A stretch of DNA of 32,000 nt, taken from Erysipelotrichaceae bacterium OH741_COT-311 (GTDB lineage: Bacteria > Bacillota_I > Bacilli_A > Erysipelotrichales > Erysipelotrichaceae). Position numbers and translations under genes: made by a program. Shown here one piece after another: positions 1,434 through 15,210 of this stretch. The notes under the pieces were generated by a model, which was given only the letters and a program-made list of their open reading frames with translations, did no database searches and had not been told where the DNA came from. The stretch lies in NCBI GenBank assembly GCA_003858585.1, contig RQZE01000006.1, forward strand, positions 96,823 through 128,822. The letters run 5' to 3'. The number at the start of each line of letters is the position of its first letter. Positions within the stretch are counted from its first letter, which is position 1.

Positions 1434-1685
1434 AGATTCTTTGTTATGCTATCTTGTTTCTAATAGATAGAAAAGTAGAATGTAAGTGAATATTGATGAA
1501 TATTAAATTAATATATTTAAGGAAAGGAATAAAAGAAAAATGATAGTTAATATAAGCCTACAATGATATAATAGCAACATATAAAGGACTAATTTAAAAT
1601 ATATAATATTGATAAAAATGTATATAATTAATTACAAAAGATGAATACTATAGATTTACCCAAAATTTAAGGAGGGGGAATAAAC

Positions 1686-2738
1686 ATGTACAAGTCTCAG
1701 GCAAGAGGTCAATTACTTGAAATTGTTTTAGAAAAACTTATTGAAGTAAATGGATATAAAGTTATTAATGAAGGAGAAGATGTTGAGGAACAGAATAATG
1801 GCTTGAATGTTAGAGGACGTGGAGGCTTTCACCAATGTGACTCTCTTGGAGAATTTAAAATTACGCCACCATTCATGTATCCATTAAGATTATTCGTTGA
1901 AGCTAAATTTTATGAAAAGGAAAAAGTTGGGATTGAAAAGGTAAGAATGGGTATTGGGATTCTACAAGATGTAAATACTAATTATTCTACCTGTGACATG
2001 GATTATAATCAGCTAAATTTAACTAGATATGATTATCATTATGCGTTGTTTTCTACATCGGGATTCACGTTTCCTGCTCAAAGAATGGCTCTTGCACACA
2101 AAATAGGTTTAATTGATTTAAGTAATGGTCAACTTAGCTTTATAAAATCATTAATAAGAGACATTGTAAATTTATTATTTGATAATGTTAATATTAGCGA
2201 GGGCGTGTTTAATCAATTTAAAAAAATTTTTAAGAATATTATAAATAACCATTTTGAAGACTATTCATGCAAATTATATGAAATGTCTCGATTATTGGAA
2301 GATTCGTATTTTTTAAGTGATTTAGAAAGGTTAATAAATGATTTGGTTAATCAAATTCAAAATCAATCTATTTATCTTGCCAGTATAAGAAGTTCTCAAA
2401 TAATAGCACTTATTCCAAAAAATAATGAAGATTTTAAATTGTCTCTTAAAAGAAATCCACATCAAAGCGTATCAATTAATTGGGAAGACCATAATGGTGA
2501 TTGGATTGTGAGACCAGAAGATCAATCGTATGAGTTAATTTTTAAATTACCTGAACTATTAGTTAGGGAGCTAAGTCAGAATTTAGAAAATATTGAAGCA
2601 AATTCAATGGCAATGAAAGAATCAGTACTAGCTACCATGAGTTTTGTTGCATACCTTGATAATCAAAATCCTACTTTATGTACATTAAAATTTGATAAAG
2701 AAATGACACTGGGAAATATTAATCGATTTAATACTTAA
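1686..2738 (+). CDS. Mrr-like PD-(D/E)xK restriction-endonuclease-fold protein with uncharacterised ~200-aa C-terminal region
   Basis: Strong RBS AAGGAGGGGG upstream. The N-terminal ~150 aa follow the Mrr_cat pattern: GQLLEIVLEKLIEVNGYKV, D52 (HQCDSLGEF), E72-A-K74 (LFVEAKF), then YALFSTSGFTFPAQRMALAHKIGLIDL. I cannot assign the C-terminal half to any family. Confidence 0.6.
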   Translation: MYKSQARGQLLEIVLEKLIEVNGYKVINEGEDVEEQNNGLNVRGRGGFHQCDSLGEFKITPPFMYPLRLFVEAKFYEKEKVGIEKVRMGIGILQDVNTNYSTCDMDYNQLNLTRYDYHYALFSTSGFTFPAQRMALAHKIGLIDLSNGQLSFIKSLIRDIVNLLFDNVNISEGVFNQFKKIFKNIINNHFEDYSCKLYEMSRLLEDSYFLSDLERLINDLVNQIQNQSIYLASIRSSQIIALIPKNNEDFKLSLKRNPHQSVSINWEDHNGDWIVRPEDQSYELIFKLPELLVRELSQNLENIEANSMAMKESVLATMSFVAYLDNQNPTLCTLKFDKEMTLGNINRFNT

Positions 2739-3099
2739 CAAATTTTAATAATATATAAAATGTTGTCTCAACTTCTAATGAGTTGTAATTAAAATGATAT
2801 ATAGCCTAAAAGATAGATGAAATATTCTTTTTGTATATAATTTGTTAGCGTATTTTTTAAAATGTATAAAGTAATTAATTATAAGTTCATGTCTTATCAT
2901 TGAAACTTGTGTAATTATGAAGAATAATAATCATTAATAAATTTAGATGAGTGTGGTAGCTCTTATTGCAACAGGTATTGCTTATGGGATTATTGTGTTT
3001 TTCTGTTAGTTTAAAATCAAAGATAATTATATTTTAAGTAAAGAATATTTTTTATAATAGAATTATTTTATGAAAGAAGTATTGTCTTAAGGAGTTATT

Positions 3100-3564
3100 A
3101 TGGTTCATTTAAAAGAAATTACAAAAGATCAAGAACAAGTTTTATTTAATATTATGCAGAAATATTTATATGAAATGAGTCAATACTACGCTAAATCAAT
3201 GGATGAACAAGGGAATTATCCTTATAAATATTTACCTTGTTATTTCACTGAGGAAGATCGGCATGCCTATTTTATCTATGAAGATACATTGTTAATTGGA
3301 TTTGTATTAGTGAATAAACACTCTTTTACAAAGGAGGAAATAGATTGTTGTATTGCAGAGTTTTGCATCTTTCCAACTTTTAGAAAGAAAGGTTATGGCT
3401 TAGATGCGGTAGAAGCAATAAGAAGGCTTCATCCCGGAAGTCTTCAATTAAAATATTCCAAAGCAAACACATTAGGTATGGCTTTTTGGAAAAAGGTATG
3501 TAAGAAATATCAAGGAATTGAAATCGTAAGCGATGATGAAATCATAGTAACCATCCATTCATAA
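3100..3564 (+). CDS. GNAT family N-acetyltransferase
   Basis: RBS AAGGAG 6 nt upstream. Acetyl-CoA motif A-like IAEFCIFPTFRKKGYGLDAV. Confidence 0.7.
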   Translation: MVHLKEITKDQEQVLFNIMQKYLYEMSQYYAKSMDEQGNYPYKYLPCYFTEEDRHAYFIYEDTLLIGFVLVNKHSFTKEEIDCCIAEFCIFPTFRKKGYGLDAVEAIRRLHPGSLQLKYSKANTLGMAFWKKVCKKYQGIEIVSDDEIIVTIHS

Positions 3565-3572
3565 AATAGATA

Positions 3573-3602
3573 AAAACGACTAAAAAGACTTAGCCGTTTT
3601 TT
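3573..3602 (+). terminator. rho-independent terminator
   Basis: AAAACGACTAA / TTAGCCGTTTT stem with one mismatch, followed by a T-run, directly after the stop of 3100..3564. Confidence 0.6.
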
Positions 3603-3646
3603 AATAGGATAAGAGTGTGATAAAATAGGGATATAGAGGTAACGAT

Positions 3647-3982
3647 ATGGCATCAAGCAAAGAATACTTAGAGTTTATTTTGGAACAACTTTGTGATTTA
3701 GAAGATGTTAGCTATCGTTTTATGATGGGTGAATATGTTTTGTATTACAAAGGTAAAATTTTTGGTGGCATTTATGATAATCGCTTTTTGGTAAAACCAG
3801 TGCCAGCTGCCATTCAATATGTCTCAAAGATAGAGTATGCCTTACCTTATAAAGGTGGTAAAGAGATGTTGTTGGTGGATAATATAGATGATAAAACATA
3901 TTTAGGTGGGCTAATAACTGCTATGTATGATGAGTTACCTGTTTTAAAAATAAAGCAACGTGAAAAAAAGAGAAATGATTGA
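3647..3982 (+). CDS. TfoX/Sxy N-terminal domain protein
   Basis: KEYLEFILEQL...VSYRFMMGEYVLYYKGKIFGGIYDNRFLVK matches the TfoX_N pattern as I recall it. RBS AGAGGT. Confidence 0.6.
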   Translation: MASSKEYLEFILEQLCDLEDVSYRFMMGEYVLYYKGKIFGGIYDNRFLVKPVPAAIQYVSKIEYALPYKGGKEMLLVDNIDDKTYLGGLITAMYDELPVLKIKQREKKRND

Positions 3983-4010
3983 GACGTGTCAAAGTATTGG
4001 GTGGTGAGGT

Positions 4011-4574
4011 ATGAATACATATATTGATATTACAGATGTTGTGCTTAAGACAAATCGTTTAACACTTCGTCCTTTTCATCAAGAGGATTTAGAAGATTTC
4101 TATCAGTATGCTTCTGTGGATGGAGTAGGACAAATGGCGGGATGGAGACCTCATTCTAGTAAAGAAGAAACACAGGCTATACTAGATTCTTTTGTAAAGA
4201 AGAAAAAAACATTTGCTTTAGAATATCAAGGAAAGGTGATCGGATCACTTGGGATTGAAGAATATAATGTAGAAAAATTTCCCGAATTTAACGATAAAAA
4301 ATGTCGACAACTTGGTTTTGTTCTTGCGAAAGAACATTGGGGGAAAGGATTTATGGTAGAGGCGGTAAATGAAGTTCTGTGCTATCTTTTTGAAGATATT
4401 GGATTAGATCTCATCTTATGTGGGTATTTTTTAAAAAATAAACAGTCACAAAGAGTACAAGAAAAATGTGGGTTTCAACCATATAGAAAGAGTATGCATC
4501 AAACTGAGATGGGTGATATTGAAGAAAGCGTGGATAATATATTACGTAAAGAGGAATGGAAACAAAATAACTAG
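4011..4574 (+). CDS. GNAT family N-acetyltransferase (RimJ/RimL-like)
   Basis: TNRLTLRPFHQEDLEDFYQY N-terminus and the HWGKGFMVEAV motif are typical of the Acetyltransf_3/RimJ-RimL class. Confidence 0.75.
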   Translation: MNTYIDITDVVLKTNRLTLRPFHQEDLEDFYQYASVDGVGQMAGWRPHSSKEETQAILDSFVKKKKTFALEYQGKVIGSLGIEEYNVEKFPEFNDKKCRQLGFVLAKEHWGKGFMVEAVNEVLCYLFEDIGLDLILCGYFLKNKQSQRVQEKCGFQPYRKSMHQTEMGDIEESVDNILRKEEWKQNN

Positions 4575-4674
4575 CTTGTTTCAATCATATTGATAGAACT
4601 GGAAAAATGAATTTAAAATGAGAAGAAATCATAGGAAATGCATTTCTATAACATAAGTATATATGGAGGTAATT

Positions 4675-5298
4675 ATGAGAAGTGGACATGTTATTTATAA
4701 AGTAAATGATTTACAACAAGCGGTGCAAGAGTGGAGAAGCAAAGGCTTTGAAGTTGAGTATGGAAGAAAGAAAAATCCGATTAATGCAATCATATATTTT
4801 AGTGAAGGGGCTTATATTGAACTGCTACAGAATACCGGCATGCCTAAAATTGTAAAGTTGTTAAGTAAAATTTTTGGTTCAAATAAGAAAATGGAACGCT
4901 TTCATTACTGGGATACATGTAAAGAAGGGTTATGTGGATTTTGTATTGAAAAGGATTTTGGAAGTTTAGATGAAGAAGTGGCATTTTTAAAGAAAAATGG
5001 TATAGATGGAGTATTATTTAATCATTTAAAACGCATTGATACAAAAGATAGAGAATTACAATACAGATGTTTTTTTCCGGAGGGCATCGATTTTCCTTTT
5101 TTAATGAGTTATTTTAGTGTTGATCCTAAACCGAAGAATTTTATACATCCAAATGGAGTGAAAAAAATCAAGAAGATTGTTTTTAAGATCGATGAACATC
5201 ATGCGAATATTTTAAAACAATTGGTAAAAGATGATACTCTTGAAATTATAGCTGATGAGAAAGAAAAAGGCATTGTCCATATTGAATATGAAAAGTAA
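4675..5298 (+). CDS. VOC / glyoxalase-like domain protein
   Basis: The ATG at 4675 is preceded by GGAGGT, so the ORF-track start at 4663 lies inside the RBS. HVIYKVNDLQQAVQEWRSKGFEVEYG...YIELL resembles the Glyoxalase_3 pattern. Confidence 0.6.
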   Translation: MRSGHVIYKVNDLQQAVQEWRSKGFEVEYGRKKNPINAIIYFSEGAYIELLQNTGMPKIVKLLSKIFGSNKKMERFHYWDTCKEGLCGFCIEKDFGSLDEEVAFLKKNGIDGVLFNHLKRIDTKDRELQYRCFFPEGIDFPFLMSYFSVDPKPKNFIHPNGVKKIKKIVFKIDEHHANILKQLVKDDTLEIIADEKEKGIVHIEYEK

Positions 5299-5329
5299 AT
5301 AGGGAGGGTAAGGATAGGGGATAAAATCA

Positions 5330-5956
5330 ATGTTTAATATTAAATACATGGGATATTATAAGGAAGAGACTCAATTAATAAATGGTGCCGCACTTCCTAT
5401 TAACGCAGTACAATTTAAAGAGGGAGATAACTTAAGTAGTATTTTTATTTTTGGTGCTATGGTAGGAATGCCATTTATATTAAGTATGATTCTTTTCGCT
5501 TATTTTAAAATGAAAGAAGTAAATTATGGATATACCTTTGAGCTAAATAGTGTAACTATTATAACCTATCTTGTAACATGTTTTTTAATGGTTGCCTTGT
5601 TGTTTGTCCATGAGTTTATTCATGCTATTTTATTTCCTTTAAAAGCAGAGAAAACAATATGGTTTTATCCTCAACAAGGAGCTTTGTTTGTCTATTGCAA
5701 TGCCTTGGTAAGTAAGATAAGATTTATTGTTATTTGTCTTGCGCCTGCGATGATTTTAGGTTTGATTCCCTTTGTGCTTTGGTATGTGTTTGCTAAACAT
5801 ATACAGATGCCCTATAGTTACGCTATAGTGGTTATATCTATTACAAATGTAGTGGCTTCTGTTGGAGATTTTGCAAATGTGTATAATGCGATTCGACAAG
5901 TTCCTAAAGGGGCATACATATTTAACTATGGATTTCATTCTTTTTGGTTGAAATAA
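5330..5956 (+). CDS. DUF3267-like integral membrane protein (putative zincin-like HExxH)
   Basis: Multiple hydrophobic segments. HEFIHAILFP motif located at a membrane helix end. Confidence 0.55.
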   Translation: MFNIKYMGYYKEETQLINGAALPINAVQFKEGDNLSSIFIFGAMVGMPFILSMILFAYFKMKEVNYGYTFELNSVTIITYLVTCFLMVALLFVHEFIHAILFPLKAEKTIWFYPQQGALFVYCNALVSKIRFIVICLAPAMILGLIPFVLWYVFAKHIQMPYSYAIVVISITNVVASVGDFANVYNAIRQVPKGAYIFNYGFHSFWLK

Positions 5957-6024
5957 TTAAGGGAAATAGAATTGTAATATCAAGAATGAGTAGACATTGG
6001 AAATTGAAAGTTTGGTAAGAAAAT

Positions 6025-6261
6025 ATGAATTGGACAATAAGAAATGTAATAAGTGGTGATGAAAAAGAGCTGGCTTATATACAAACAGAGAGTTGGAAGG
6101 AAGCCTTTAAACATATTCTTTCAGAAGAGTTACTTAAAATATATACAGATAAAAATCGTTCTATGAAGATGTACAAACGCTTAATCGATGAAGGTATTGG
6201 ACATGGATATATCTTAGAAGTAAACGGTAATCCTCATTGTATTGCATGGTGGGTTGCATAA
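6025..6261 (+). pseudogene. GNAT acetyltransferase, 5' fragment (gene interrupted by mobile element)
   Basis: 76 native residues ending ...GNPHCIAWW, then VA-stop read from element DNA. The missing acetyl-CoA-binding half is found in frame at 12008..12283. Confidence 0.8.
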
Positions 6262-6262
6262 T
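6257..6262 (+). promoter_or_regulatory. -10 half (CATAAT) of a promoter completed only in the excised circle
   Basis: CATAAT lies 4 nt inside the left end and ~48 nt upstream of the recombinase ATG. Joined to the right end, it lies 17 nt from TTGACA (11989-11994). Confidence 0.45.
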
Positions 6263-6310
6263 ATTAACTGAACAGGAGTGATATATAGACACAAAAAGGA
6301 GGATAAAGCA

Positions 6311-8149
6311 ATGATGGAATATGCAACCAAAATCACTGCGCTATACTCCCGCCTTTCAGTTGGTGATGAGGATAGGGATGGTGGGGAAAGCAACAGTATC
6401 GTTAATCAAAAGGCATTCTTAGAACGGTATGCAAAACAGCATAAGCTGATGAACATTCGCCACTATATCGACGATGATGAAAGCGGTCGCTTCTTTGACC
6501 GTAATGCTTACACACAGATGATAAGCGATGTGGAAAACGGTAAAATCGGCATAGTCATTATGAAAGATATGACAAGGTGGGGACGAGATTATCTTCAAGT
6601 TGGGAACGCTATGGAGATATTCAGAAGAAACAATGTACGCTTTATTGCCATCAACAACGGCATTGACAGCAAAGACCAAAATACATTGGAATTTGCCCCT
6701 TTTATCAATATTATGTCGGAGTGGTACGCAAGGGATATCAGTAAGAAAGTCAAAACAGGCATTAAGACCAAAGGAGCAAGCGGAAAGCCTGTCGCAACAG
6801 AAGCCCCGTACGGCTATATCAAAGACCCTGAGAACAAAGATTATTGGATCGTCGATAAAGAAGCTGCCGAAGTGGTAAAACTCATTTTTACGCTTTTTAT
6901 GGAGGGGAAAAATAGAAATCAGATAGCCGTTTATTTGAAAGAAAAAGAAATACTAACCCCAACCTTTTATATGAAACAGCAAGACAGAGGAACCGCAAAA
7001 AGCAGAACACTCAATGAAGAAAATCGCTATAACTGGAACAAAGCAACCCTAACACGCATACTGCAAAGGCAGGAGTATTGTGGCGATGTAGTCAACTTCA
7101 AAACCGAAAAGCATTACAAAGACAAGCGAAACCACTATGTCGATAAAGATAAGTGGCAAATCACCCCCGATGTGCATGAGCCAATCATCGACCGAGCCAC
7201 CTATGAAAATGTACAGCGGATATTAAAAAATGCACCGGTAAAAAGACCGAACGGAGATGGAGAAATCCACCCATTATCGGGATTGATGTACTGTAAAGAT
7301 TGCGGTACGAAAATGCACATTCGCACCATACACAAGAATAATAAAATACAGCATGTAACCTATTGTAGCGAATATGCCAAAGGCAAAGCCAAGCACCCGA
7401 AATGCCATTCCCCACATCGCATTGATGTCGATGATGTCATGGAAACGCTCAAAGAGATTTTACGAAAGATAGGCAAGTTTTCATTCACAAACAAATCAGA
7501 GTTTGAAGCATTGGTAAAAAACAGTCTTGCCAAAGAACAGACCGAAGAAGTAGGGAAACAAAAAAATCGTATCCCACAAATCACAGATAGATTGGAACAG
7601 ATAGAAAGAGTGATGAATAAACTGTATGAAGATAACGCACTGGGAAATATCGAGCCGAAACGCTATGAACAACTATCGGGGAAATATGCAGAAGAATATT
7701 ACAGCTTAAAAGCGGAACAGGAGCAAATAGAAGAACGCTTATCCGAATTTGAAAATGCCAACCAAAGAGCCAAGAATTTTATAAGGCTTGCTGAAAGCTA
7801 CTCAGACTTTGAAGAACTTACCCCCACTGCTATCAATGAATTTATCAGTAAAATAGTAGTGCATGAGCGAGATGTCAAAAGAGCAAAATATGCCGTTCAG
7901 CGAATCGAAGTCTATTTCAACTATATCGGAAAATTTGAAAATGAACTCACAAAACAGATCGAGCCGACAGAACAGGAAATGATACAGATGAGAGAAGAAA
8001 TCGAAGAAGCTAAGAAAGAAAAAGCACGAGCATATCGTAGGGAATATTACAAAGAATACCGAGCCAAAAATATTGAAAAATGCCGAGAGTATGAAAAAGT
8101 AAAGGCAAGAGAGTATAGAGCAAAAAAGAAGCTACAAGCAACAACCTAA
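6311..8149 (+). CDS. large serine recombinase (TnpX-like)
   Basis: AGGAGG at 6297-6302, 8 nt before the ATG at 6311. N-terminal resolvase catalytic pattern ALYSRLSVGDED...NQ. Recombinase domain, Cys-rich zinc-ribbon region (CKDCGTKMH...YCSEY...KCH) and a long coiled-coil C-terminus. Confidence 0.9.
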   Translation: MMEYATKITALYSRLSVGDEDRDGGESNSIVNQKAFLERYAKQHKLMNIRHYIDDDESGRFFDRNAYTQMISDVENGKIGIVIMKDMTRWGRDYLQVGNAMEIFRRNNVRFIAINNGIDSKDQNTLEFAPFINIMSEWYARDISKKVKTGIKTKGASGKPVATEAPYGYIKDPENKDYWIVDKEAAEVVKLIFTLFMEGKNRNQIAVYLKEKEILTPTFYMKQQDRGTAKSRTLNEENRYNWNKATLTRILQRQEYCGDVVNFKTEKHYKDKRNHYVDKDKWQITPDVHEPIIDRATYENVQRILKNAPVKRPNGDGEIHPLSGLMYCKDCGTKMHIRTIHKNNKIQHVTYCSEYAKGKAKHPKCHSPHRIDVDDVMETLKEILRKIGKFSFTNKSEFEALVKNSLAKEQTEEVGKQKNRIPQITDRLEQIERVMNKLYEDNALGNIEPKRYEQLSGKYAEEYYSLKAEQEQIEERLSEFENANQRAKNFIRLAESYSDFEELTPTAINEFISKIVVHERDVKRAKYAVQRIEVYFNYIGKFENELTKQIEPTEQEMIQMREEIEEAKKEKARAYRREYYKEYRAKNIEKCREYEKVKAREYRAKKKLQATT

Positions 8150-8174
8150 AACCAAATATCAACCAAGCAAAAGA

Positions 8175-8203
8175 GGTTTCCGAAGTACAGGAAATCTTTT
8201 TTT
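8175..8203 (+). terminator. rho-independent terminator after recombinase
   Basis: GGTTTCC-8nt-GGAAATC stem with one G:U pair, followed by TTTTTTT. Confidence 0.55.
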
Positions 8204-8225
8204 GTGCAAGTAAAAGGAGGATTAA

Positions 8226-8408
8226 ATGACCGAAAAACAAAAACCACAGACCAACGAAGAACAAGCGACACACCGAAAACCTGATGGCATTCTAACAAAA
8301 AAGATGAATGGAAAGACCTTTGTAACAGAAATATATTTTGATAAAAAGAGCAAGGATACCTTTCAAGATAAGCTGTTAAAGATAGTGCAAGCCCAGCGGA
8401 AAGAATAA
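8226..8408 (+). CDS. TnpW-like small transposon-encoded protein
   Basis: RBS AAAGGAGG. GKTFVTEIYFDKKSKDTFQDKLLKIV resembles the TnpW family pattern (..TTY.V.V.FS..SKET..DKL.RLI) as I recall it. Confidence 0.5.
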   Translation: MTEKQKPQTNEEQATHRKPDGILTKKMNGKTFVTEIYFDKKSKDTFQDKLLKIVQAQRKE

Positions 8409-8494
8409 ATAAAACAAACACTTTGTATTTTGCTTCTCCGTGCTTTTCAATCTGTTCCTATGAAAAACACGAAAGCAAGCAGAAAATCCGACAG

Positions 8495-8523
8495 TGGAAA
8501 AAATGCCCTCAAAATGGTATAAT
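8495..8523 (+). promoter_or_regulatory. extended -10 promoter of cargo slot 1
   Basis: TGGAAA - 17 nt - TGgTATAAT (TG at 8515-8516, TATAAT at 8518-8523). The same 12-mer ATGGTATAATAT recurs at 11270-11281. Confidence 0.5.
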
Positions 8524-8587
8524 ATTGATAAACAATTAGAGAAACAAGTTTGAATTTATTGAGATGAACTTTGGGAGAGGTATTAAG

Positions 8588-9109
8588 ATGGGTGGGGTTT
8601 GGCTATTGCTAATATTCTTAACTGTAAGATTTGGTTTGTTTTCTATCATAAAAAAAGAAGCTATACAGCGAGCAGGATATTTTGCTCCAATACAAAAATC
8701 TGAAAAAGTAGCATATTACATCTACCAAGTATCTAATATAGCATTATTAATATGCGTGATGGTATCATCAGTAAAAATTGATTTTTCTCTTCAATTTTAT
8801 TTAGGCTTATCGCTCTTTTTGGTAGGTATATTATTATGTGCAATTTCAGTTGTGTGTTTTGCTTTCCCGAATGATGAGGGGTTAAATACCAATGGTATTT
8901 ATAAATTTTCAAGAAATCCGATGTATGTGGCTTATTTTGTTTGCTTCTTAGGGATGTCTTTATTAATACAGTCATTAATCATGTTGGTAATGGTGTTAAT
9001 CTTCCAGATTTCTGCTCATTGGATTATTGTATCGGAAGAAAGATGGTGTTTAGAAAAGTTCGGAAAAAGCTATGAAGATTATACAAAAAAGGTTCGACGA
9101 TACATTTAA
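8588..9109 (+). CDS. isoprenylcysteine carboxyl methyltransferase (ICMT/PEMT)-like membrane protein, cargo 1
   Basis: Polytopic membrane protein with FSRNPMYVAYFVCFLGMSL and SEERWCLEKFGKSYEDY motifs typical of the ICMT/PEMT-like family. The ATG at 8588 follows GGGAGAGG; the alternative start at 8564 has no RBS. Spot GC 27% (line 8601-8660). Confidence 0.6.
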   Translation: MGGVWLLLIFLTVRFGLFSIIKKEAIQRAGYFAPIQKSEKVAYYIYQVSNIALLICVMVSSVKIDFSLQFYLGLSLFLVGILLCAISVVCFAFPNDEGLNTNGIYKFSRNPMYVAYFVCFLGMSLLIQSLIMLVMVLIFQISAHWIIVSEERWCLEKFGKSYEDYTKKVRRYI

Positions 9110-9156
9110 ACTATCTCCTCGTTTGTTGGAGTGAAGTAAACAAAAGCTATAACATG

Positions 9157-9217
9157 ACAATTCACGAAACAGTAAATTAAATCGGTTTACTGTTTTTTTA
9201 TTGCTCAAAATCAAGAA
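9157..9217 (+). repeat. ~60-nt direct repeat copy A (contains terminator)
   Basis: Hand alignment with 11903-11963 gives ~49/61 identities: ACAATT...GAAACAGTAAAT...GGTTTnCTGTTTTTT..TTGCTCAA. Confidence 0.7.
9167..9199 (+). terminator. rho-independent terminator of cargo slot 1
   Basis: Perfect 10-bp stem AAACAGTAAA / TTTACTGTTT with a 9-nt loop and a T-run. Confidence 0.7.
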
Positions 9218-9232
9218 GAAAGGACAAGGAAA

Positions 9233-9553
9233 ATGAAAAATATAGAAGAAAAGATTTTAATGGCAGAAGAAGAAATCAAGCAGTTACGAAACAAAAGAAA
9301 AAAGCTCATCAGTCAGCAGAAAGAGGAGGAACGAAAAAAGAGAGATAGACGGCTTTATGAAAAAGGAGGAGTATTTGAAAGTATCTTTACTGAAAGCAAA
9401 GAATTAACCAAAGATGAATTTTATCAGCTCATAAGTTCTCTAAATCATAAAGAAGAAATCCGACAAAAAATCAAGAAAATCATAGCTAAGCGAGAAGAAA
9501 ACGAAAACCAAAATATAGAAACACAAGAGGAAGTAACGGACATCGGGGAATAG
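9233..9553 (+). CDS. DUF3847-like coiled-coil protein (relaxase-associated accessory)
   Basis: EEEIKQLRNKRKKLISQQKEEERKKRDRRLYEKGGVFESIF matches the DUF3847 pattern (..ERKARTRRLIERGAILESL..) that I recall upstream of Mob genes in Clostridia. Confidence 0.55.
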   Translation: MKNIEEKILMAEEEIKQLRNKRKKLISQQKEEERKKRDRRLYEKGGVFESIFTESKELTKDEFYQLISSLNHKEEIRQKIKKIIAKREENENQNIETQEEVTDIGE

Positions 9554-9554
9554 T

Positions 9555-9664
9555 CCCTTGTTTACAAGGGTGCACTTATACACCCTAAAGGGTGTGTGCG
9601 TTCTCCGAAGGCTCTTGCAGAGAGCATATCAGCTAAACGCTGATACAGGGGAGCTACACTCCCC
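9555..9664 (+). promoter_or_regulatory. candidate oriT (four hairpins plus MobQ-like nic core)
   Basis: Inverted repeats: CCCTTGT/ACAAGGG (9555-9570), ACACCCT/AGGGTGT (9580-9595), TATCAGC/GCTGATA (9627-9645), GGGGAG/CTCCCC (9648-9664). GTGCGTTCTCC (9596-9606), just 3' of the second repeat, resembles the RSF1010/R1162 nic region GTGCGCCCTCC (from memory). Confidence 0.5.
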
Positions 9665-9794
9665 TACGGAAATAAATTTCCTACCCCTTGTGTACTTCCC
9701 AAAAGAAATCGGATAAAAAGCAATTCGATTTTTTTAGGAAGTCTTATCCATCGCCACATCAAAGTATCAGAACAACGAAAGGGGGTTTTCTCTT

Positions 9795-11255
9795 ATGGCA
9801 ATATATCATCTCAGTATCAAAATTATCTCAAGAGGCAAAGGCAAGAGTGCAGTTGCAGCTTCCGCCTATCGAAGTGGCGAAAAGATAAAAAATGAGTATG
9901 ACGGCATAGTCCATGACTTTACAAGAAAAGGAGGAATCGCCCATACCGAAATTCTATTACCACAAAATGCACCACAGGAGTTTTTGGACAGGGGAACATT
10001 ATGGAATAGCGTGGAGAAAATCGAAAAAAGTAAAAACTCACAGCTTGCAAGAGAAATAGAAATCGCCTTACCCAAAGAATTAAACCGAGAAAAACAGATA
10101 GAACTTGTACGAGAATATGTAAAAGAAAATTTTGTGAAAGTCGGTATGTGTGCCGATATTGCCTTACACGACAAAAATGACAGAAACCCACACGCACATA
10201 TCCTATTAACAATGCGACCGTTAAACGAAGATACAACATGGGGAGCAAAATCAAAAAAAGAATATATCCTTGATGAAAACGGAGAAAAAGTAAAACTCAA
10301 AAATGGCAATTACAAAACCAAAAAAATCAATATAGTCGATTGGAATGAGCAAGAAAAAGCGGAAGAGTGGCGAAAAGCATGGGCAGATATTACCAACAAA
10401 TATTTGGAAGAAAACAATATACAGGAAAAAGTGGATCACCGTTCTTATCAAAGACAAGGAATAGAACAAATACCGACTATTCATTTAGGAGTATCGGCAA
10501 CACAAATGGAAAAGAAAGGCATAGACACAGACAGAGGAAATATCAACAGAGAAATCAGAAAACAGAATAGGCTATTACAGGAAATAAAGTTAAGAATAAA
10601 AGCCTTACTAAATTGGATAAGAGGAATTGGAAAAGAAGAAAAGGCAGAAACTGAAAATATCAAATCAGCCCTCCCATCCAAAGAAAATCTATTGTCAGTT
10701 TTTGAAAATCTTATCCGTAAAAATGCAGATAACCATAATACAGATTTAGAGCAATACATCGAAAGCTATCAATTCTTAAAAGAGAACAATATCATTTCTG
10801 TATCTGAACTGAAAGAAAACATAGTTACTTTAAGAGATAAGAACTACAAGACCACAAGAGCTATTAAAGATACTGAAAAGCAGATTGATGATAGAGTACA
10901 GCTTATCGACCACGCCGAAAAATATTTGAAGCATAAAGACACCTATAAAGCCTATATCAAGCTGAAGAAAAACAAACAAGATATTTTCTACAATGAACAT
11001 ACCGCAGAGATTATTTTATTTGAAAGTGCGAAGAAATATTTGAAAGAACATTTAGGAGAAAGCAAGTCCTTAACTATATCTAAATGGAAATCGGAAGTAA
11101 CCGCCTTGAAGAAAGAAAAAGACAGTCTGTATTCTCAAATCATAGACCTACGGAAAGAAGTGGAACAAGCAGAAAGTGTAAGAAGCTGTATAGAGAAATT
11201 ACAACAAGAAAACAGAGAAATAACACAGGTTAAGAAGCAAGAATTAGACCTGTAA
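9795..11255 (+). CDS. MobA/MobL (MobQ-type) relaxase
   Basis: Canonical N-terminus MAIYHLSIKIISRGKGKSAVAASAYRSGEKI (catalytic Tyr). Histidine triad region HDKNDRNPHAHILLT. Coiled-coil C-terminal half. Confidence 0.9.
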   Translation: MAIYHLSIKIISRGKGKSAVAASAYRSGEKIKNEYDGIVHDFTRKGGIAHTEILLPQNAPQEFLDRGTLWNSVEKIEKSKNSQLAREIEIALPKELNREKQIELVREYVKENFVKVGMCADIALHDKNDRNPHAHILLTMRPLNEDTTWGAKSKKEYILDENGEKVKLKNGNYKTKKINIVDWNEQEKAEEWRKAWADITNKYLEENNIQEKVDHRSYQRQGIEQIPTIHLGVSATQMEKKGIDTDRGNINREIRKQNRLLQEIKLRIKALLNWIRGIGKEEKAETENIKSALPSKENLLSVFENLIRKNADNHNTDLEQYIESYQFLKENNIISVSELKENIVTLRDKNYKTTRAIKDTEKQIDDRVQLIDHAEKYLKHKDTYKAYIKLKKNKQDIFYNEHTAEIILFESAKKYLKEHLGESKSLTISKWKSEVTALKKEKDSLYSQIIDLRKEVEQAESVRSCIEKLQQENREITQVKKQELDL

Positions 11256-11279
11256 AACTAATTGAAAATATGGTATAAT
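11251..11279 (+). promoter_or_regulatory. extended -10 promoter of cargo slot 2
   Basis: TGTAAA - 17 nt - TGgTATAAT (TATAAT at 11274-11279). Same geometry and 12-mer as the promoter at 8495-8523. The downstream leader shares AAACAA(A)TTAGA with slot 1. Confidence 0.5.
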
Positions 11280-11312
11280 ATAACAAACAGCGAGTAAAAC
11301 AAATTAGAAGTT

Positions 11313-11873
11313 GTGGAGGTGAAAATTATAGATACTTCAAAATTCTCATGGAATGAGTTTGAACAAAATTTGTTTCAAGATGGAAAGTGGGAAATACCAT
11401 CAAAGTACAAAATTAAAATAAATGATTCATCAGAGAAAAGATACAAATTAGAGATGATTTTATATAAGATGTCTCACAAATATGTAGCAAGATGGGCATT
11501 AGAAAATGCTCAAGCGTTCTTATCTTTTATAGAGATTGGTGATAAAGAGTTAAAGGAATCAATCATGTGTGAAACAACAGCGGTATTAAATATGCGTATT
11601 GACGGGAAATCAAGTGCGTATAAACTGAGAAACGCTGGATTTTTAGCGAATAAATTAGGACAAATGTCAATTAATGATTTAAGTAAATATTCTGCAAGAG
11701 TATTTGCACAATCCATAGCAACTGGTCATATGAGAGGACATGCTATTGTATCATCTGATTATGCTATTAAAGTTATTAATATTTTATTCCCTAATGATAA
11801 TTTAAAAGTCGAAGAAGAAAGAAATCGGCAAATTGAATTAGCGAATAAAATTATAAAGGAATATGATATTTAA
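11313..11873 (+). CDS. hypothetical helical protein, possibly Imm-5-like putative immunity protein, cargo 2
   Basis: ARVFAQSIATGHMRGHAIVSSDYAIKVI resembles the conserved helix pair (A..HM..HA...A.YA.KA) of a family I recall being annotated as putative immunity protein. The start is ambiguous: GTG 11313 lacks an RBS, while GGAGGTG (11316-11322) is followed only by ATT 11325 or ATA 11328. Spot GC 22%. Confidence 0.4.
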   Translation: MEVKIIDTSKFSWNEFEQNLFQDGKWEIPSKYKIKINDSSEKRYKLEMILYKMSHKYVARWALENAQAFLSFIEIGDKELKESIMCETTAVLNMRIDGKSSAYKLRNAGFLANKLGQMSINDLSKYSARVFAQSIATGHMRGHAIVSSDYAIKVINILFPNDNLKVEEERNRQIELANKIIKEYDI

Positions 11874-11902
11874 ACAACTCCCGGTTTGTCTAATTGAATA
11901 TA

Positions 11903-11963
11903 ACAATTTGAGAAACAGTAAATCAAAAAGGTTTGCTGTTTTTTGTTGCTCAATTTTCAAAAA
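11903..11963 (+). repeat. ~60-nt direct repeat copy B (contains terminator)
   Basis: Pairs with 9157-9217 at ~80% identity by hand alignment. Confidence 0.7.
11913..11944 (+). terminator. rho-independent terminator of cargo slot 2
   Basis: AAACAGTAAA / TTTGCTGTTT stem with one G:U pair, a 9-nt loop and a T-run. Confidence 0.65.
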
Positions 11964-11988
11964 ATCGTCCATAAATATAAACAGGCAC

Positions 11989-11994
11989 TTGACA
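11989..11994 (+). promoter_or_regulatory. -35 half (TTGACA) of the circle-junction promoter
   Basis: Consensus TTGACA lies 10 nt inside the right-end TGGG and faces outward. In the integrated state there is no -10 at proper spacing downstream. Confidence 0.45.
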
Positions 11995-12007
11995 AAACGC
12001 TCTCTGG

Positions 12008-12283
12008 GATAAAGCGCGAGATGAAGATATGTTTGGTTATGCGGAATTGATTTGCATTCATAGTATTTGTAATCAATGGAGAAAAGGCTATGGCACTAAA
12101 TTAATGAGAAAAGTATTAGAGGATATGAAAGCGAAGGGGTATGATAAGGTACTACTTTGGGTATTTAGGGATAATTATCAAGCACGTATGTTTTATGAAA
12201 AACTTGGCTTTTGTACTTTTGGTAAGATGAAAACCTATTTAAATACCGAAGAGATTTGTTATGAGAAAAAGTTAACTCTTTAG
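12008..12283 (+). pseudogene. GNAT acetyltransferase, 3' fragment
   Basis: The frame is open from 11993. From 12008 it reads DKARDEDMFGYAELICIHSICNQWRKGYGTKLMRKVL..., the GNAT motif A (Q/RxxGxG/A) half. It is in frame with 6025..6252 once the element is removed. Confidence 0.8.
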
Positions 12284-12316
12284 CTGAAAATATAGAGATA
12301 AAATTGGAGTCATTGT

Positions 12317-12835
12317 ATGGATGAAGTAAGATTGAAAAAATTACAACGTTATATTGGAAAAAGGTCACAGGGACAAAGTGATGAACAGGTTATGGCACAT
12401 ATTGAAAAAGAAATTGCAAAGTATGGCATTACACCGGAACAGTGGGCGAAATTATTGTTTCCACTTTGTGCCAATGCGGAATATCCCTTTTTTCTTTCAT
12501 TATCTAAAAAAGCCAATTTAGAAGATATGGCAGAAACGTTAATCAGTCATACCGTACGTTTTCGTCAAAACAACATGGAAAAAGAACAGAATCAAGTGGC
12601 TATTGTAAAGCATCTTCTAAGTTATATTCCTGAAAAATGTAAACAGGAAGTGATAGATAGAGCACTTGGAACCTCTGCTTGGTTTGCAGAATATGAATTA
12701 ACAAACTATCTTATCGAATGTGGGGCAAGCCTTCAAATGGTTTCCAATGGTCGCAGTTTATTAGAACTTGCAGAACATGGCAAGAATCAATTTGAAGATG
12801 ATAGAGTGTATAACTACATCAAAGATCGTATGTAG
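12317..12835 (+). CDS. hypothetical protein (C-terminal ankyrin-repeat-like segment)
   Basis: RBS TTGGAG. LTNYLIECGASLQMVSNGRSLLELAEHG loosely resembles an ankyrin repeat. No family assignment. Confidence 0.5.
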   Translation: MDEVRLKKLQRYIGKRSQGQSDEQVMAHIEKEIAKYGITPEQWAKLLFPLCANAEYPFFLSLSKKANLEDMAETLISHTVRFRQNNMEKEQNQVAIVKHLLSYIPEKCKQEVIDRALGTSAWFAEYELTNYLIECGASLQMVSNGRSLLELAEHGKNQFEDDRVYNYIKDRM

Positions 12836-12904
12836 TTGTTTGCTTATTTGACTATTTTGTATATTGGTGTTAGATTAAGGGTTAGTAGGAAGGAGTGATG
12901 ATTT

Positions 12905-12967
12905 ATGGATGAGATACCTAAGTCGATAAATACAATCATTACTTTTATACTACGGCTTAATGAATGA
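12905..12967 (+). CDS. candidate 20-codon leader ORF in the mgtE leader (MDEIPKSINTIITFILRLNE)
   Basis: AGGAAGGAG at 12887-12895, 9 nt before the ATG. The ORF ends 22 nt before the attenuator hairpin. Confidence 0.3.
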   Translation: MDEIPKSINTIITFILRLNE

Positions 12968-12989
12968 TTCCTTAAGTATTTTTAATTGA

Positions 12990-13015
12990 GCTGTCGTATA
13001 AACGATGGCTTTTTT
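12990..13015 (+). terminator. leader terminator/attenuator upstream of mgtE
   Basis: GCTGTCG-TATAAA-CGATGGC stem with two G:U pairs, followed by TTTTTT. The mgtE RBS AAAGGAGG begins immediately after. Confidence 0.5.
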
Positions 13016-13030
13016 AAAGGAGGAATAGGC

Positions 13031-14362
13031 ATGGATATTAAAGAAATAAACGCTTTATTGCATCAAAAGAAATATAAAGAGGTGCATCAATTAACGTTAG
13101 ATAGTAATCCTGTTGACTTGGCTGAATTACTAAATGAACTTGAAAAAGAAGAGCGTGGCTTATGTTTTCGTTTATTGGAAAAAGATAAGGCTGCAGAAGT
13201 TTTTTCGTATATGGATAATGATATAAGAAAGGCATTGTTAAAAACCTTATCCAGTCAAAATGTTGCGGAGTTATTTGAAGAGATGTATGTGGATGATGCG
13301 GTTGATTTTTTAGAAGATATGCCTAGTAATGTTATTACGAATTTATTAGATAACGTGGATATGAAAACACGTAATCAAATCAATCAATTATTGCATTATT
13401 CGAAAGATAGTGCCGGTAGTATTATGACGGTTGAATTTATTGAATTATATCCAACGATGAGTGTAAAACAAGCACTTGATAAAATTCGTCGTGTAGGAAT
13501 AGATAGTGAAACCGTATATACTTGTTACGTGGTTGAAAAGCGTAAGTGTTTAGGGATTGTAACAGCAAAGGACTTAATGATTCATGATCCTGAAACAAAG
13601 ATTGAATCGCTGATGAAGAAAGAATTTATTTATGCTCATACCCATGATGATCGAGAAGACATTGCCAATAAATTGCGTAAATATGGGCTAATCGCGATTC
13701 CTGTATTAGACGCAGAAGGGTGTATTGTGGGTATTGTAACTTTCGATGATGCGATTGATGTCTTAACAGATGAAACAACAGAGGATATGCAAAAGATGGC
13801 AGCGATGATGGCTAATGATAAACCATATCTATCAACAAGTGTCTTGCAACATGCGTATAATCGCATCGGTTGGTTGTTGATTTTAATGTTATCAGCTACC
13901 ATAACCGGAAGTATTATCAGCCGTTATGAACATGCGTTTGAGGTATTACCAATCTTGGTGTCATTTATACCGATGTTGATGGATACCGGAGGAAATTGTG
14001 GATCACAAAGTTCAACCTTAGTTATTCGTGGTTTAGCCATCGATGAAATTAAATTTAAAGATATTTGGAAAGTGCTTTTTAAAGAATTTCGTGTTTCATT
14101 AGTTGTTGGTTGTGCTTTGGCATTGGCAAATGGTTTGCGTATTTTCTTCATTTACAAAGATCTTTCGCTGGCGATTGTAGTGGCAGTTTCATTGATGGCA
14201 ACCATCGTAATTGCGAAAATTATTGGATGTTGCTTACCAATCTTAGCCAAGAAATTAAAGTTGGATCCGGCGATTATGGCTGCACCATTAATTACAACAA
14301 TTGTGGATACTTGTTCTATTATGGTGTACTTTAGTATCGCTACGATTATTTTTAAGATATAA
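13031..14362 (+). CDS. mgtE: magnesium transporter MgtE
   Basis: MgtE N-domain, tandem CBS region and a C-terminal membrane domain with PMLMDTGGNCGSQSSTL. The ATG at 13031 follows AAAGGAGG; the track start at 12986 lies inside the terminator. Confidence 0.9.
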   Translation: MDIKEINALLHQKKYKEVHQLTLDSNPVDLAELLNELEKEERGLCFRLLEKDKAAEVFSYMDNDIRKALLKTLSSQNVAELFEEMYVDDAVDFLEDMPSNVITNLLDNVDMKTRNQINQLLHYSKDSAGSIMTVEFIELYPTMSVKQALDKIRRVGIDSETVYTCYVVEKRKCLGIVTAKDLMIHDPETKIESLMKKEFIYAHTHDDREDIANKLRKYGLIAIPVLDAEGCIVGIVTFDDAIDVLTDETTEDMQKMAAMMANDKPYLSTSVLQHAYNRIGWLLILMLSATITGSIISRYEHAFEVLPILVSFIPMLMDTGGNCGSQSSTLVIRGLAIDEIKFKDIWKVLFKEFRVSLVVGCALALANGLRIFFIYKDLSLAIVVAVSLMATIVIAKIIGCCLPILAKKLKLDPAIMAAPLITTIVDTCSIMVYFSIATIIFKI

Positions 14363-14470
14363 GGAGTGGATAAAATGAAACGAAAAGTAATTATTATGTT
14401 TGTTGTGATTTTAATGATGTTAACCTTAATTTCACCATTATTTAGAATGTAGAATAGATGGTTGTTTTAT

Positions 14471-14746
14471 ATGGCACAGATATTAGTGATTGGGATTATT
14501 TTTTCAGTGGTAATGCTTTTTTTGGCTATATTTAAGTTTAAGCAACATTCTATTGCACTAGAATCAAGACTTGATGAATTTGAAAAGAAGTATAAGCGAA
14601 TGCATGCAGATTATCTTACTAAAGAAGAAATTGAATATTTAAAAGAATTAAAGCAAAATGGACAGACGATACAGGCGATTAAGGAGTTAAGAAATCTAAC
14701 ATTTATGTCTTTGCTTGAAGCAAAAGAATATATAGATTATTTATAA
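14471..14746 (+). CDS. single-pass membrane protein with L7/L12 C-terminal-domain-like tail
   Basis: N-terminal hydrophobic helix. C-terminal GQTIQAIKELRNLTFMSLLEAKEYIDYL resembles KVAVIKAVRxxTGLGLKEAKDLVE of bL12. Confidence 0.5.
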   Translation: MAQILVIGIIFSVVMLFLAIFKFKQHSIALESRLDEFEKKYKRMHADYLTKEEIEYLKELKQNGQTIQAIKELRNLTFMSLLEAKEYIDYL

Positions 14747-15210
14747 GAAAATTTGAGAAGGGAAAAGCCCAAAAACCAGTGATATAATAGAGTTATAAAG
14801 AAGAGATTAATCATGAATCTTATGATTATAACGATATGCATCGTTTTACTTGGTGCTTTTTTCATGTTTTTAGGAGATGTCGTTGTATTAAGGTAAAGAT
14901 GGATTTGATGTTATAAATGCCAAAACTTCTATTATTGAAATCATGAAAAAAGTAGGAACAAAACGTTTATATAGGAGGATTATTAGATTCTTCCTTTTAC
15001 AAGGGGAGCATATAGACTATTGGTATTTATTTGCTTTCTGGTGCTTTGCTTGGGAAAGCGTGTAAGTATTTTGTAAAAAAATTACCACATAAAAACAGAT
15101 TATTATAAACTTTTACCATCCTAGTGCCCAAAGACTGAAACCTGAAGAATTATTTGATCTTTTCTTAGAAATAATAAAGGATATAAAAAAATTAGAAAAT
15201 ATAAAATAAC

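Follow-up and report, generated by a model that had tools for sequence, protein, structure and literature searches.

The window analysed here, a 32,000-nucleotide stretch of contig RQZE01000006.1 of Erysipelotrichaceae bacterium OH741_COT-311, very probably harbors an intact integrative and mobilizable element (IME) at positions 6252-12006, which encodes a TnpX-related large serine recombinase (a serine integrase) and a MobQ-family relaxase, occupies a pseudo-attB site within a gene coding for a GNAT-type acetyltransferase and follows the life cycle proposed below. Elements of this kind, namely serine-recombinase/MobQ IMEs located in coupling-protein genes, have already been described, and the location within the GNAT gene is the sole atypical point.

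The GNAT gene is split at 6252/12008, and removal of 5,755 bp in silico (6025-6252 joined to 12008-12283) makes the reading frame whole again, as a 504-nt open reading frame (ORF) encoding 167 amino acids (~168 in a first-pass annotation of the DNA, which had predicted the single frame). That annotation had recognized the ORF at 6025-6261 as an N-terminal GNAT half ending in ...GNPHCIAWW, followed by VA and a stop, with the C-terminal half 5.7 kb downstream, and the sequence bears this out. The left end of the element brings an in-frame TAA, and the 5′ fragment of the target stops two codons inside the element. When the halves were searched separately, the C-terminal fragment (ORF 12029-12283) matched Acetyltransf_1, Acetyltransf_7 and FR47, while the N-terminal fragment alone matched no Pfam family. 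The rebuilt protein has 1,403 full-length homologues of ~165-167 amino acids, the best of which (P0001; 167 amino acids; 98% identity over 100% of the length) is encoded on a contig, L001, that is syntenic with the window and carries an uninterrupted GNAT allele. Positions 3646-6253 of the window share 98.2% identity with L001 6443-9050, positions 12005-14986 share 95.9% with L001 9047-12029, and the two alignments share exactly 4 bp, TGGG. The uninterrupted allele in this close relative thus represents the true empty site, indicating that the insertion is real and precise, while the 96-98% identity of the flanks indicates that it is recent.

Related loci were collected by exact protein look-up (L002-L011 and L093-L098) and from a survey that took a single genome for each species (L012-L091). 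Across more than 80 loci, similarity to the element begins at 6243-6255, and it terminates at 12008 in all loci that include the right end. The left end is identical or nearly so in these loci and immediately follows a target TG, with the sequence GGTTGCATAATATTAACTG... adjoining the target in every locus. Regular expressions for both ends located 43 distinct complete elements of 5.2-10.9 kb with the same ends, spread over numerous Firmicutes, and the occurrence of these ends in many independent copies confirms the proposed boundaries. An assembly chimera was ruled out, since both ends of the element agree base for base with those of the family; L109, the sole further assembly with the GNAT insertion, is not independent support on this point.

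The tetranucleotide TGGG shared by both junctions had initially been proposed as a short crossover core. A short core without target-site duplication is upheld by the comparison with the relatives, but its extent is reduced to the dinucleotide TG. Relatives located at other sites have no more than TG in common between attL and attR, namely L054 (left ...CTG-TG-AGGTG; right ...TTCA-TG-AAATG), L060 (CCC-TG-GAG; TCA-TG-CCG), L057 (GT-TG-AGG; CA-TG-GGG) and L032 (TCC-TG-GGT; ATC-TG-TCC), on which basis TGGG and GG were rejected as cores. The GG that follows TG is the same in attP and attB by coincidence, being present in the canonical target as well. As judged from these junctions and from the exact restoration of the empty site, the crossover core is TG and there is no target-site duplication; a 2-bp core fits the expectation for a serine recombinase. 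The reconstructed attP joint reads ...TTGACAAAACGCTCTCTGGGTTGCATAAT... / ACTTGACAAAACGCTCTCTGGGTTGCATAATATTAACTG, and that of the repaired GNAT gene (attB) ...ATTGCATGGTGGGATAAAGCG... / CATTGTATTGCATGGTGGGATAAAGCGCGAGATG. In L032 (~850-880) the left flank (...GGGAAACCGCTTCCTG/GGTTGCAT) furthermore resembles the right end of another family member and the right flank is non-canonical, which suggests tandem accretion or insertion beside an attR-like remnant.

Target preference of the family and the GNAT site

Approximately 75 of the 85 related loci (~88%) are located at one site, with the left flank ...GAGTATGGnTCnGCAAGA-TG and the right flank G-GGnAAnnnnAAAGATATnGAGCC. The canonical site (..GAGTATGGnTCnGCAAGATGGGGnAA..) corresponds to the codons ...EYGSARW/G..KDIEPY. 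In-silico removal of the relatives yields ORFs of 600-612 amino acids with T4SS-DNA_transf, TraG-D_C and TrwB_AAD_bind domains, which identifies the family target as the gene for the VirD4/TraG-type coupling protein (type IV coupling protein, T4CP) found in integrative and conjugative elements (ICEs), a preference that the first-pass annotation missed. DUF3801, Maff2, TrbL_2, PrgI and VirB4 are encoded in the neighbourhood within these ICEs, which are themselves often located in rumA. Many elements of a more distant subfamily (L053-L091) have TG-A in attP, and on their insertion a TGA stop replaces the EYGSARW Trp codon precisely at the junction.

Some ten loci (~12%) are found elsewhere (L025, L032, L041, L045, L050, L054, L059, L060, L076 and L081), and several of these non-T4CP sites keep the pattern GCA-n-n-TG-G. 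The GNAT site reads GCATGG-TG-GGATAAAG, compared to GCAAGA-TG-GGGAAAnnnAAAGAT at the canonical site. When every TG in the empty-site window was scored with an attB position-weight matrix built from 37 unique canonical sites, the GNAT site ranked second among 3,285 TG sites (z=3.3). Given that the family prefers the ICE gene for the T4CP (traG/virD4), insertion into the GNAT gene would represent a secondary-site event, and is best read from these comparisons as the use of a pseudo-attB.

Predicted joint promoter, proposed life cycle and alternative readings

Joining of the ends places TTGACA of the right end exactly 17 bp upstream of CATAAT of the left end, ahead of the ribosome-binding site (RBS) of the recombinase gene. 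CATAAT and the 17-bp spacer are present in 35/35 distinct attP reconstructions, with the -35 hexamer being TTGACA in 34 and TTGACG in one, and the geometry spans two subfamilies between which the recombinases are 72-74% identical. In the integrated copy the -35 position is occupied by TCATTG. The internal promoter-like sites of the region score at most 10/12, and the joint would score 11/12. A promoter is therefore predicted in silico that would exist in the excised form only. Such an arrangement, with a promoter in the circular form, has been reported for Tn4451/Tn4453 (Lyras & Rood 2000, as cited in PMC13023037, reference 38).

We propose that the large serine recombinase would pair attL with attR and swap strands at the TG core, and that excision would release a circle and restore the target exactly, here as a functional 167 amino acid GNAT gene. 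The circle would bring TTGACA and CATAAT 17 bp apart to form a strong promoter before the recombinase gene, and the enzyme would consequently be expressed mainly from the excised circle, in line with what has been reported for Tn4451. The MobQ relaxase, probably together with the DUF3847 protein, would nick the oriT-like region (9554-9794), and the DNA would leave through the coupling protein and type IV secretion system (T4SS) that a co-resident conjugative element provides. Once in the recipient, attP would be inserted by the recombinase into attB, preferably a conserved stretch of the VirD4/TraG gene of Tn1549/Tn5252-type ICEs; in the window the look-alike GNAT site would have been used.

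Several observations weigh against this proposal. The GNAT site has a score of -22, compared to a median of +57 for true attB sites, which suggests that integration at this site is inefficient, and excision from attL and attR with a non-canonical arm may be impaired. No attP junction, whether of an excised or of a tandem form, was found for the family in the JGI metagenome contigs (two degenerate patterns) or in IMG/VR (first pattern), although this does not refute excision, as circles are rare and transient. No conjugative helper is discernible in the 32-kb window. Furthermore, L109 shares 100% identity over 13.9 kb with the window and probably derives from the same isolate, and there is thus no independent population evidence for the time over which the insertion has persisted. 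A contig of 100% identity is available from Logan run SRR9701139. Three metagenome contigs of 5-6 kb (P0153, P0141 and P0177) were considered as assembled circles and ruled out, being integrated copies with T4CP flanks.

The most serious alternative is that of a stranded, effectively immobile copy, which entered once at a poor pseudo-site, cannot excise and decays in place. We consider this unlikely. It would account for the poor absolute match of the GNAT site to attB, the failure to find the attP junction in either collection and the absence of a helper ICE from the window, and relatives with a degenerate recombinase gene are indeed known (L099, L100, L102 and L104, with a 1.34-kb deletion). 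Against it, the six ORFs of the copy are intact and full-length, both of its ends represent the family consensus down to the promoter hexamers, and the identity of its flanks to the empty-site relative points to a recent insertion.

A Tn4451/Tn4453-type mobilizable transposon in the strict sense, inserting with low specificity at many sites that need a short core only, and with the GNAT gene as an ordinary target, is in essence the reading of the first-pass annotation and appears quite improbable. The catalytic domain of the recombinase is 54% identical to that of TnpX, a TnpW gene is present, joining of the ends would create a promoter like that of Tn4451, DUF4368 is a domain typically found in multi-targeting large serine recombinases and ~12% of the related loci lie outside T4CP genes. 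However, ~88% of the loci are found at one identical T4CP codon, and a likeness to the canonical attB (GCA-n-n-TG-G) persists at the secondary sites. The core is TG as opposed to GA in Tn4451 (PMC5704250, table), the relaxase is of the MobQ type as opposed to the MobV listed for Tn4451 (PMC5704250), and TnpW is the sole Tn4451 family in a Pfam scan of the element ORFs, which include no counterpart of TnpV or TnpY. A regulated reversible GNAT switch comparable to the skin element/sigK or phage/comK systems, with excision timed to the need for the acetyltransferase, is scarcely credible: excision would restore the ORF precisely, the co-oriented recombinase gene directly downstream of the GNAT 5′ fragment would permit read-through and a similar idea was proposed by Coluzzi et al. 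for IMEs in traG (PMC5357655), but the GNAT gene is not a recurrent target, being interrupted in one isolate only and intact in close relatives, and the family target is the T4CP gene.

Within the preferred reading, that of an intact IME at a pseudo-attB, it is doubtful that the secondary-site insertions represent a functional escape route and not accidents. If they do, an IME in a chromosomal pseudo-attB could persist in ICE-free lineages, the T4CP gene of an incoming ICE would be spared from disruption by the IME, leaving the ICE intact as a helper, and the recombinase gene could come under the control of a host promoter, here that of the GNAT gene. It is likewise doubtful that the invariant TnpW gene and the split promoter seen across the family make up an undescribed directionality control circuit.

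Gene content, cargo and relatives of the element

The features of the element and its target are listed in Table 1. The first-pass annotation had described a complete integration and mobilization kit, and the recombinase, TnpW, DUF3847 and MobA_MobL were all recovered in domain searches, with the hairpins located at 9554-9680. Its further statement that conjugation genes are absent agrees with the lack of any match to a T4SS, T4CP or TcpA family among the six ORFs (Pfam and NCBIfam), all of which are intact, with no truncation relative to their homologues.

Table 1. Coordinates of the IME and of the interrupted GNAT gene in the window.
Feature	Position	Strand	Remarks
GNAT 5′ fragment	6025..6251	+	Reads into element as ...AWW-VA-stop; stop codon 6259-6261
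attL crossover dinucleotide TG	6250..6251	+	First two bases of second Trp codon of ...AWW
Left end, GGTTGCATAATATTAACTGAACAGGAGTG...	6252..6310	+	Contains -10 CATAAT (6257-6262) and recombinase RBS AGGAGG
Large serine recombinase, 612 amino acids	6311..8149	+	Resolvase, Recombinase, Zn_ribbon_recom, DUF4368; putative nucleophile Ser16 in YSRLS
TnpW-like protein, 60 amino acids	8226..8408	+	PF14202, 42.7 bits (cut-off 25)
Cargo slot 1, PEMT/ICMT-family membrane methyltransferase, 181 amino acids (173 from ATG 8588)	8564..9109	+	Pfam PEMT/ICMT
DUF3847 coiled-coil protein	9233..9553	+	PF12958, 51.9 bits; 5′ of relaxase gene; kept in 43/43 complete relatives
oriT-like non-coding region	9554..9794	+	Several short hairpins (9554-9680); 240-bp gap before relaxase gene
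MobQ-family relaxase, 486 amino acids	9795..11255	+	Pfam MobA_MobL, 340 bits; Tyr25, HxD...NPHAH metal motif
Cargo slot 2, Imm5-like putative immunity protein, 186 amino acids	11313..11873	+	PF21805, 86 bits
Right end, motif CTTGACAAAACGCT...	11897..12004	+	Contains -35 TTGACA (11989-11994); motif kept in both subfamilies
attR crossover dinucleotide TG	12005..12006	+	Shared with attL
GNAT 3′ fragment, acetyl-CoA-binding half	12007..12283	+	Acetyltransf_1, 47 bits; syntenic with L001

The only GenBank labels are "DUF4368 domain-containing protein" for the recombinase and "TraA" for the relaxase. In the former the Recombinase and zinc-ribbon domains lie C-terminal to the catalytic domain (PF00239: 85 bits; PF07508: 77 bits; PF13408: 40.8 bits; the latter two above their cut-offs). 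Among PDB entries it is matched best by the catalytic domain of TnpX (2MHC; E=3e-29), with 62/114 aligned residues identical (54%) and YSRLS of the recombinase opposite YERLS of TnpX. ATG 6311, and not GTG 6278, is taken as the start codon in view of the AGGAGG RBS and the uniform length of the homologues (612 amino acids), which share up to 95% identity with it; proteins annotated as TndX share ~33%. The TnpW gene is located directly 3′ of the recombinase gene throughout the family, its position being kept in L002-L011 and L093-L108.

The DUF3847 protein probably serves as a relaxosome accessory protein. The adjoining non-coding region is 83-96% conserved across 28 distinct relatives and, with its hairpins, fits an oriT. 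The stretch ...ACTCCCC/TACGGAAAT... may resemble the RSF1010/pSK41-type nic region, but we make no claim to this effect and assign no nic site. The relaxase passes the NCBIfam MobQ model (NF041496; 286 bits; cut-off 200), and alignment to NES (4HT4) and MobA (2NS6) places Tyr25 and the HD...NPHAH motif. The slot 1 methyltransferase has sub-threshold matches only in NCBIfam, and PADLOC assigns neither cargo protein to a defence system.

Relatives of the recombinase number in the thousands. Proteins with ~87-95% identity occur in Streptococcus suis, S. anginosus, Solobacterium moorei, Helcococcus, Criibacterium and Corynebacterium pseudotuberculosis (names as given by the source), as well as in records named Streptococcus, Peptoniphilus, Anaerococcus, Johnsonella, Solobacterium, Ezakiella and others. 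Records with non-Firmicutes names (P0159 and P0261; L022, L023, L025, L050 and L051), including Corynebacterium pseudotuberculosis, Pasteurella canis and metagenome-assembled genomes of Alloscardovia, Riemerella, 'Proteobacteria', Fusobacterium and Desulfovibrio, encode recombinases that are mostly 88-92% identical (79% in L050). Either the host range is very broad, or these attributions are artefacts of binning and contamination.

All 43 complete elements share a common backbone consisting of the recombinase, TnpW, cargo slot 1, DUF3847, the oriT, MobQ, cargo slot 2 and the right end. The cargo slots are highly variable, with 87 cargo ORFs falling into 50 clusters. Slot 1 holds a type A chloramphenicol acetyltransferase gene (catA; element 2273-2896; NCBIfam 324 bits; cut-off 270) in L038 of Kallipyga massiliensis, and a gene for an Lsa-family ABC-F ribosomal protection protein (element 2264-3742; 798; NCBIfam cut-off 750) in L037 of Urinicoccus massiliensis. 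The non-resistance cargo, which had been put forward as a distinguishing feature of the element, therefore loses this status, as siblings with catA and lsa-type ABC-F genes show the slots to be variable. In L003 the cargo comprises a 6-kb block with Crp/Fnr, hybrid-cluster protein and rubredoxin genes. This 10.9-kb member, found in L003, L004, L009 and L011 (e.g. L003 9939-20798), has a recombinase 95% identical to that of the window, encodes a Crp/Fnr regulator, ferredoxin-like proteins, rubredoxin and the hybrid-cluster protein (prismane), and uses a more distant MobQ module (48% amino acid identity).

Near-identical siblings are found in L101 and L103, where elements with 94-98% nucleotide identity and an identical methyltransferase in the same slot occupy the canonical T4CP site. 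An identical Imm5-like gene and the same right end occur at the canonical T4CP site in L110, and the identical protein is also encoded beside other MobQ and T4CP genes. In L099, L100, L102 and L104 (e.g. L099 9056-9547), the same IME with the methyltransferase cargo has lost ~1.34 kb of the recombinase gene, equivalent to 6505-7847 of the window. The deletion has identical end-points across samples and leaves a remnant of 163 amino acids with DUF4368; these copies are immobilized derivatives. A second DUF3847-oriT-MobQ module is located less than 10 kb from the first in L029, L036, L037 and L043 (e.g. L029 18395-20601), which shows that several related IMEs can share one ICE region.

Megablast comparison of the element with the INPHARED phages gave no matches, and with PLSDB a single 203-bp oriT-like match (84% identity) on a C. 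perfringens plasmid. This stretch has a ParB gene on one side and an IS3 element on the other in plasmid pSXP-169 (L092 4001-4207; NZ_CP143493.1 23816-24022), with no MobQ or DUF3847 coding sequence detectable nearby, and may represent an orphan oriT.

The rest of the 32-kb window is ordinary chromosome, with NAD biosynthesis, aldolase, MurA, IspF and MgtE genes. Three GNAT-type genes, including the interrupted one, are clustered in 3.5 kb (3100-3564, 4011-4574 and 6025-12283), with small glyoxalase-like and DUF3267 genes as neighbours, and given its paralogues, loss of the interrupted gene may cost the host little. Besides the IME, three further indels or replacements separate the window (1449-2945, 3628-3645 and 14987-15144) from L001 (3940-4458, 5140-6442 and 12030-13101). 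An ORF of 350 amino acids (1686-2738) without a Pfam match stands in the place of an L001 ORF of 169 amino acids, and the window lacks both a 400 amino acid ORF of L001 and ~0.9 kb that holds a 240 amino acid ORF.

Comparison with known mobile elements

The likeness to Tn4451/Tn4453 of Clostridium perfringens and Clostridioides difficile that was remarked upon in the first-pass annotation holds in part. Both are mobilizable elements of ~6 kb with one large serine recombinase, that of the window element being putatively of the TnpX type (54% identity over 114 aligned residues of the catalytic domain), and both have a 2-bp crossover without target duplication, a TnpW gene and a joint promoter (predicted in silico for the window element), while one sibling of the window element carries a type A cat gene. 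The strict features of Tn4451, however, are not shared. Tn4451 has a GA core, "numerous sites" and a MobV relaxase (PMC5704250). The window element has a TG core, a MobQ relaxase where Tn4451 has the Mob/Pre (MobV) protein TnpZ, no TnpV, TnpY or CatP, and a TnpW gene directly after the recombinase gene where that of Tn4451 is at the far end, and its family strongly prefers one target.

Tn6104, which resides in Tn6103 of C. difficile R20291, was shown by Brouwer et al. to excise as a circle, and its 2-bp repeat and kinship to TnpX were reported (PMC3158075). It resembles the window element in its TnpX-related recombinase and in a mobA/mobL gene near the right end, and resides inside the traG (VirD4) gene of its host ICE, flanked by the 2-bp repeat (PMC3158075; PMC5704250). 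By its description, Tn6104 differs in being larger (15.6 kb; 21 ORFs) and in encoding a TnpV homologue, a two-component system, an ABC transporter, sigma factors and a toxin-antitoxin pair.

DUF4368 marks a multi-targeting clade of large serine recombinases, which includes TndX-like transposases (Durrant et al. 2022; PMC10083194). The window recombinase has this domain, and its family uses one main site and several look-alikes. It is, however, far more specific than the AT-rich/TT-core example (PMC10083194), and the attB logo of the family is a conserved coding motif.

The closest described elements are those of IME_Class_5, defined by Coluzzi et al. (2017) by a serine integrase (Ser_1 family, clustered at 40% identity or more) and a Rel_PF03389/MobQ relaxase without a coupling protein (PMC5357655). 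The MobQ relaxase, which had been singled out as setting the element apart from known ones, is thus not distinctive, since this very combination is published. The sites of IME_Class_5 members include traG, maff2 and snf2 of Tn5252-superfamily ICEs (e.g. IME_SanC238_traG_site_2), and a replisome-organiser or DnaC-like gene is reported to be carried by most published members (PMC5357655). In their review, Guédon et al. likewise place IME_Class_5-type elements and Tn6104 in traG (PMC5704250), and surveys of S. suis report IMEs in traG of Tn1549-family ICEs.

The present element opens no new biological question, as parasites of ICE coupling-protein genes and the joint promoter of Tn4451 are already in the literature. 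It provides a clean, well-delimited IME, for which the exact empty site is available, and gives access to a very widespread family. The comparison adds the TG core, the attB logo in the T4CP gene, the two cargo slots and the predicted excised-form-only promoter, details which help in the annotation of such elements and could guide the use of the recombinase as a tool.

In common with IME_Class_5, the window element has a single large serine integrase and a MobQ (PF03389) relaxase and no coupling protein or T4SS, and its relatives (88-95% recombinase identity) reside in VirD4/TraG genes of ICEs, including those of Streptococcus anginosus and S. constellatus; in the former species, a recombinase with 89% identity is encoded within traG of a rumA-integrated ICE. 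It differs in being located in a chromosomal GNAT gene and not in traG, maff2 or snf2, in its size (5.8 kb; 12.2 kb for the named examples), in its shorter relaxase (486 amino acids, against 544-546) and in the absence of a replication- or primosome-type Pfam family among its six ORFs. As the integration site is the usual location of the members and not the definition of the class, the element is filed, on the basis of its gene content and the published description, as a member of IME_Class_5 at a secondary site.

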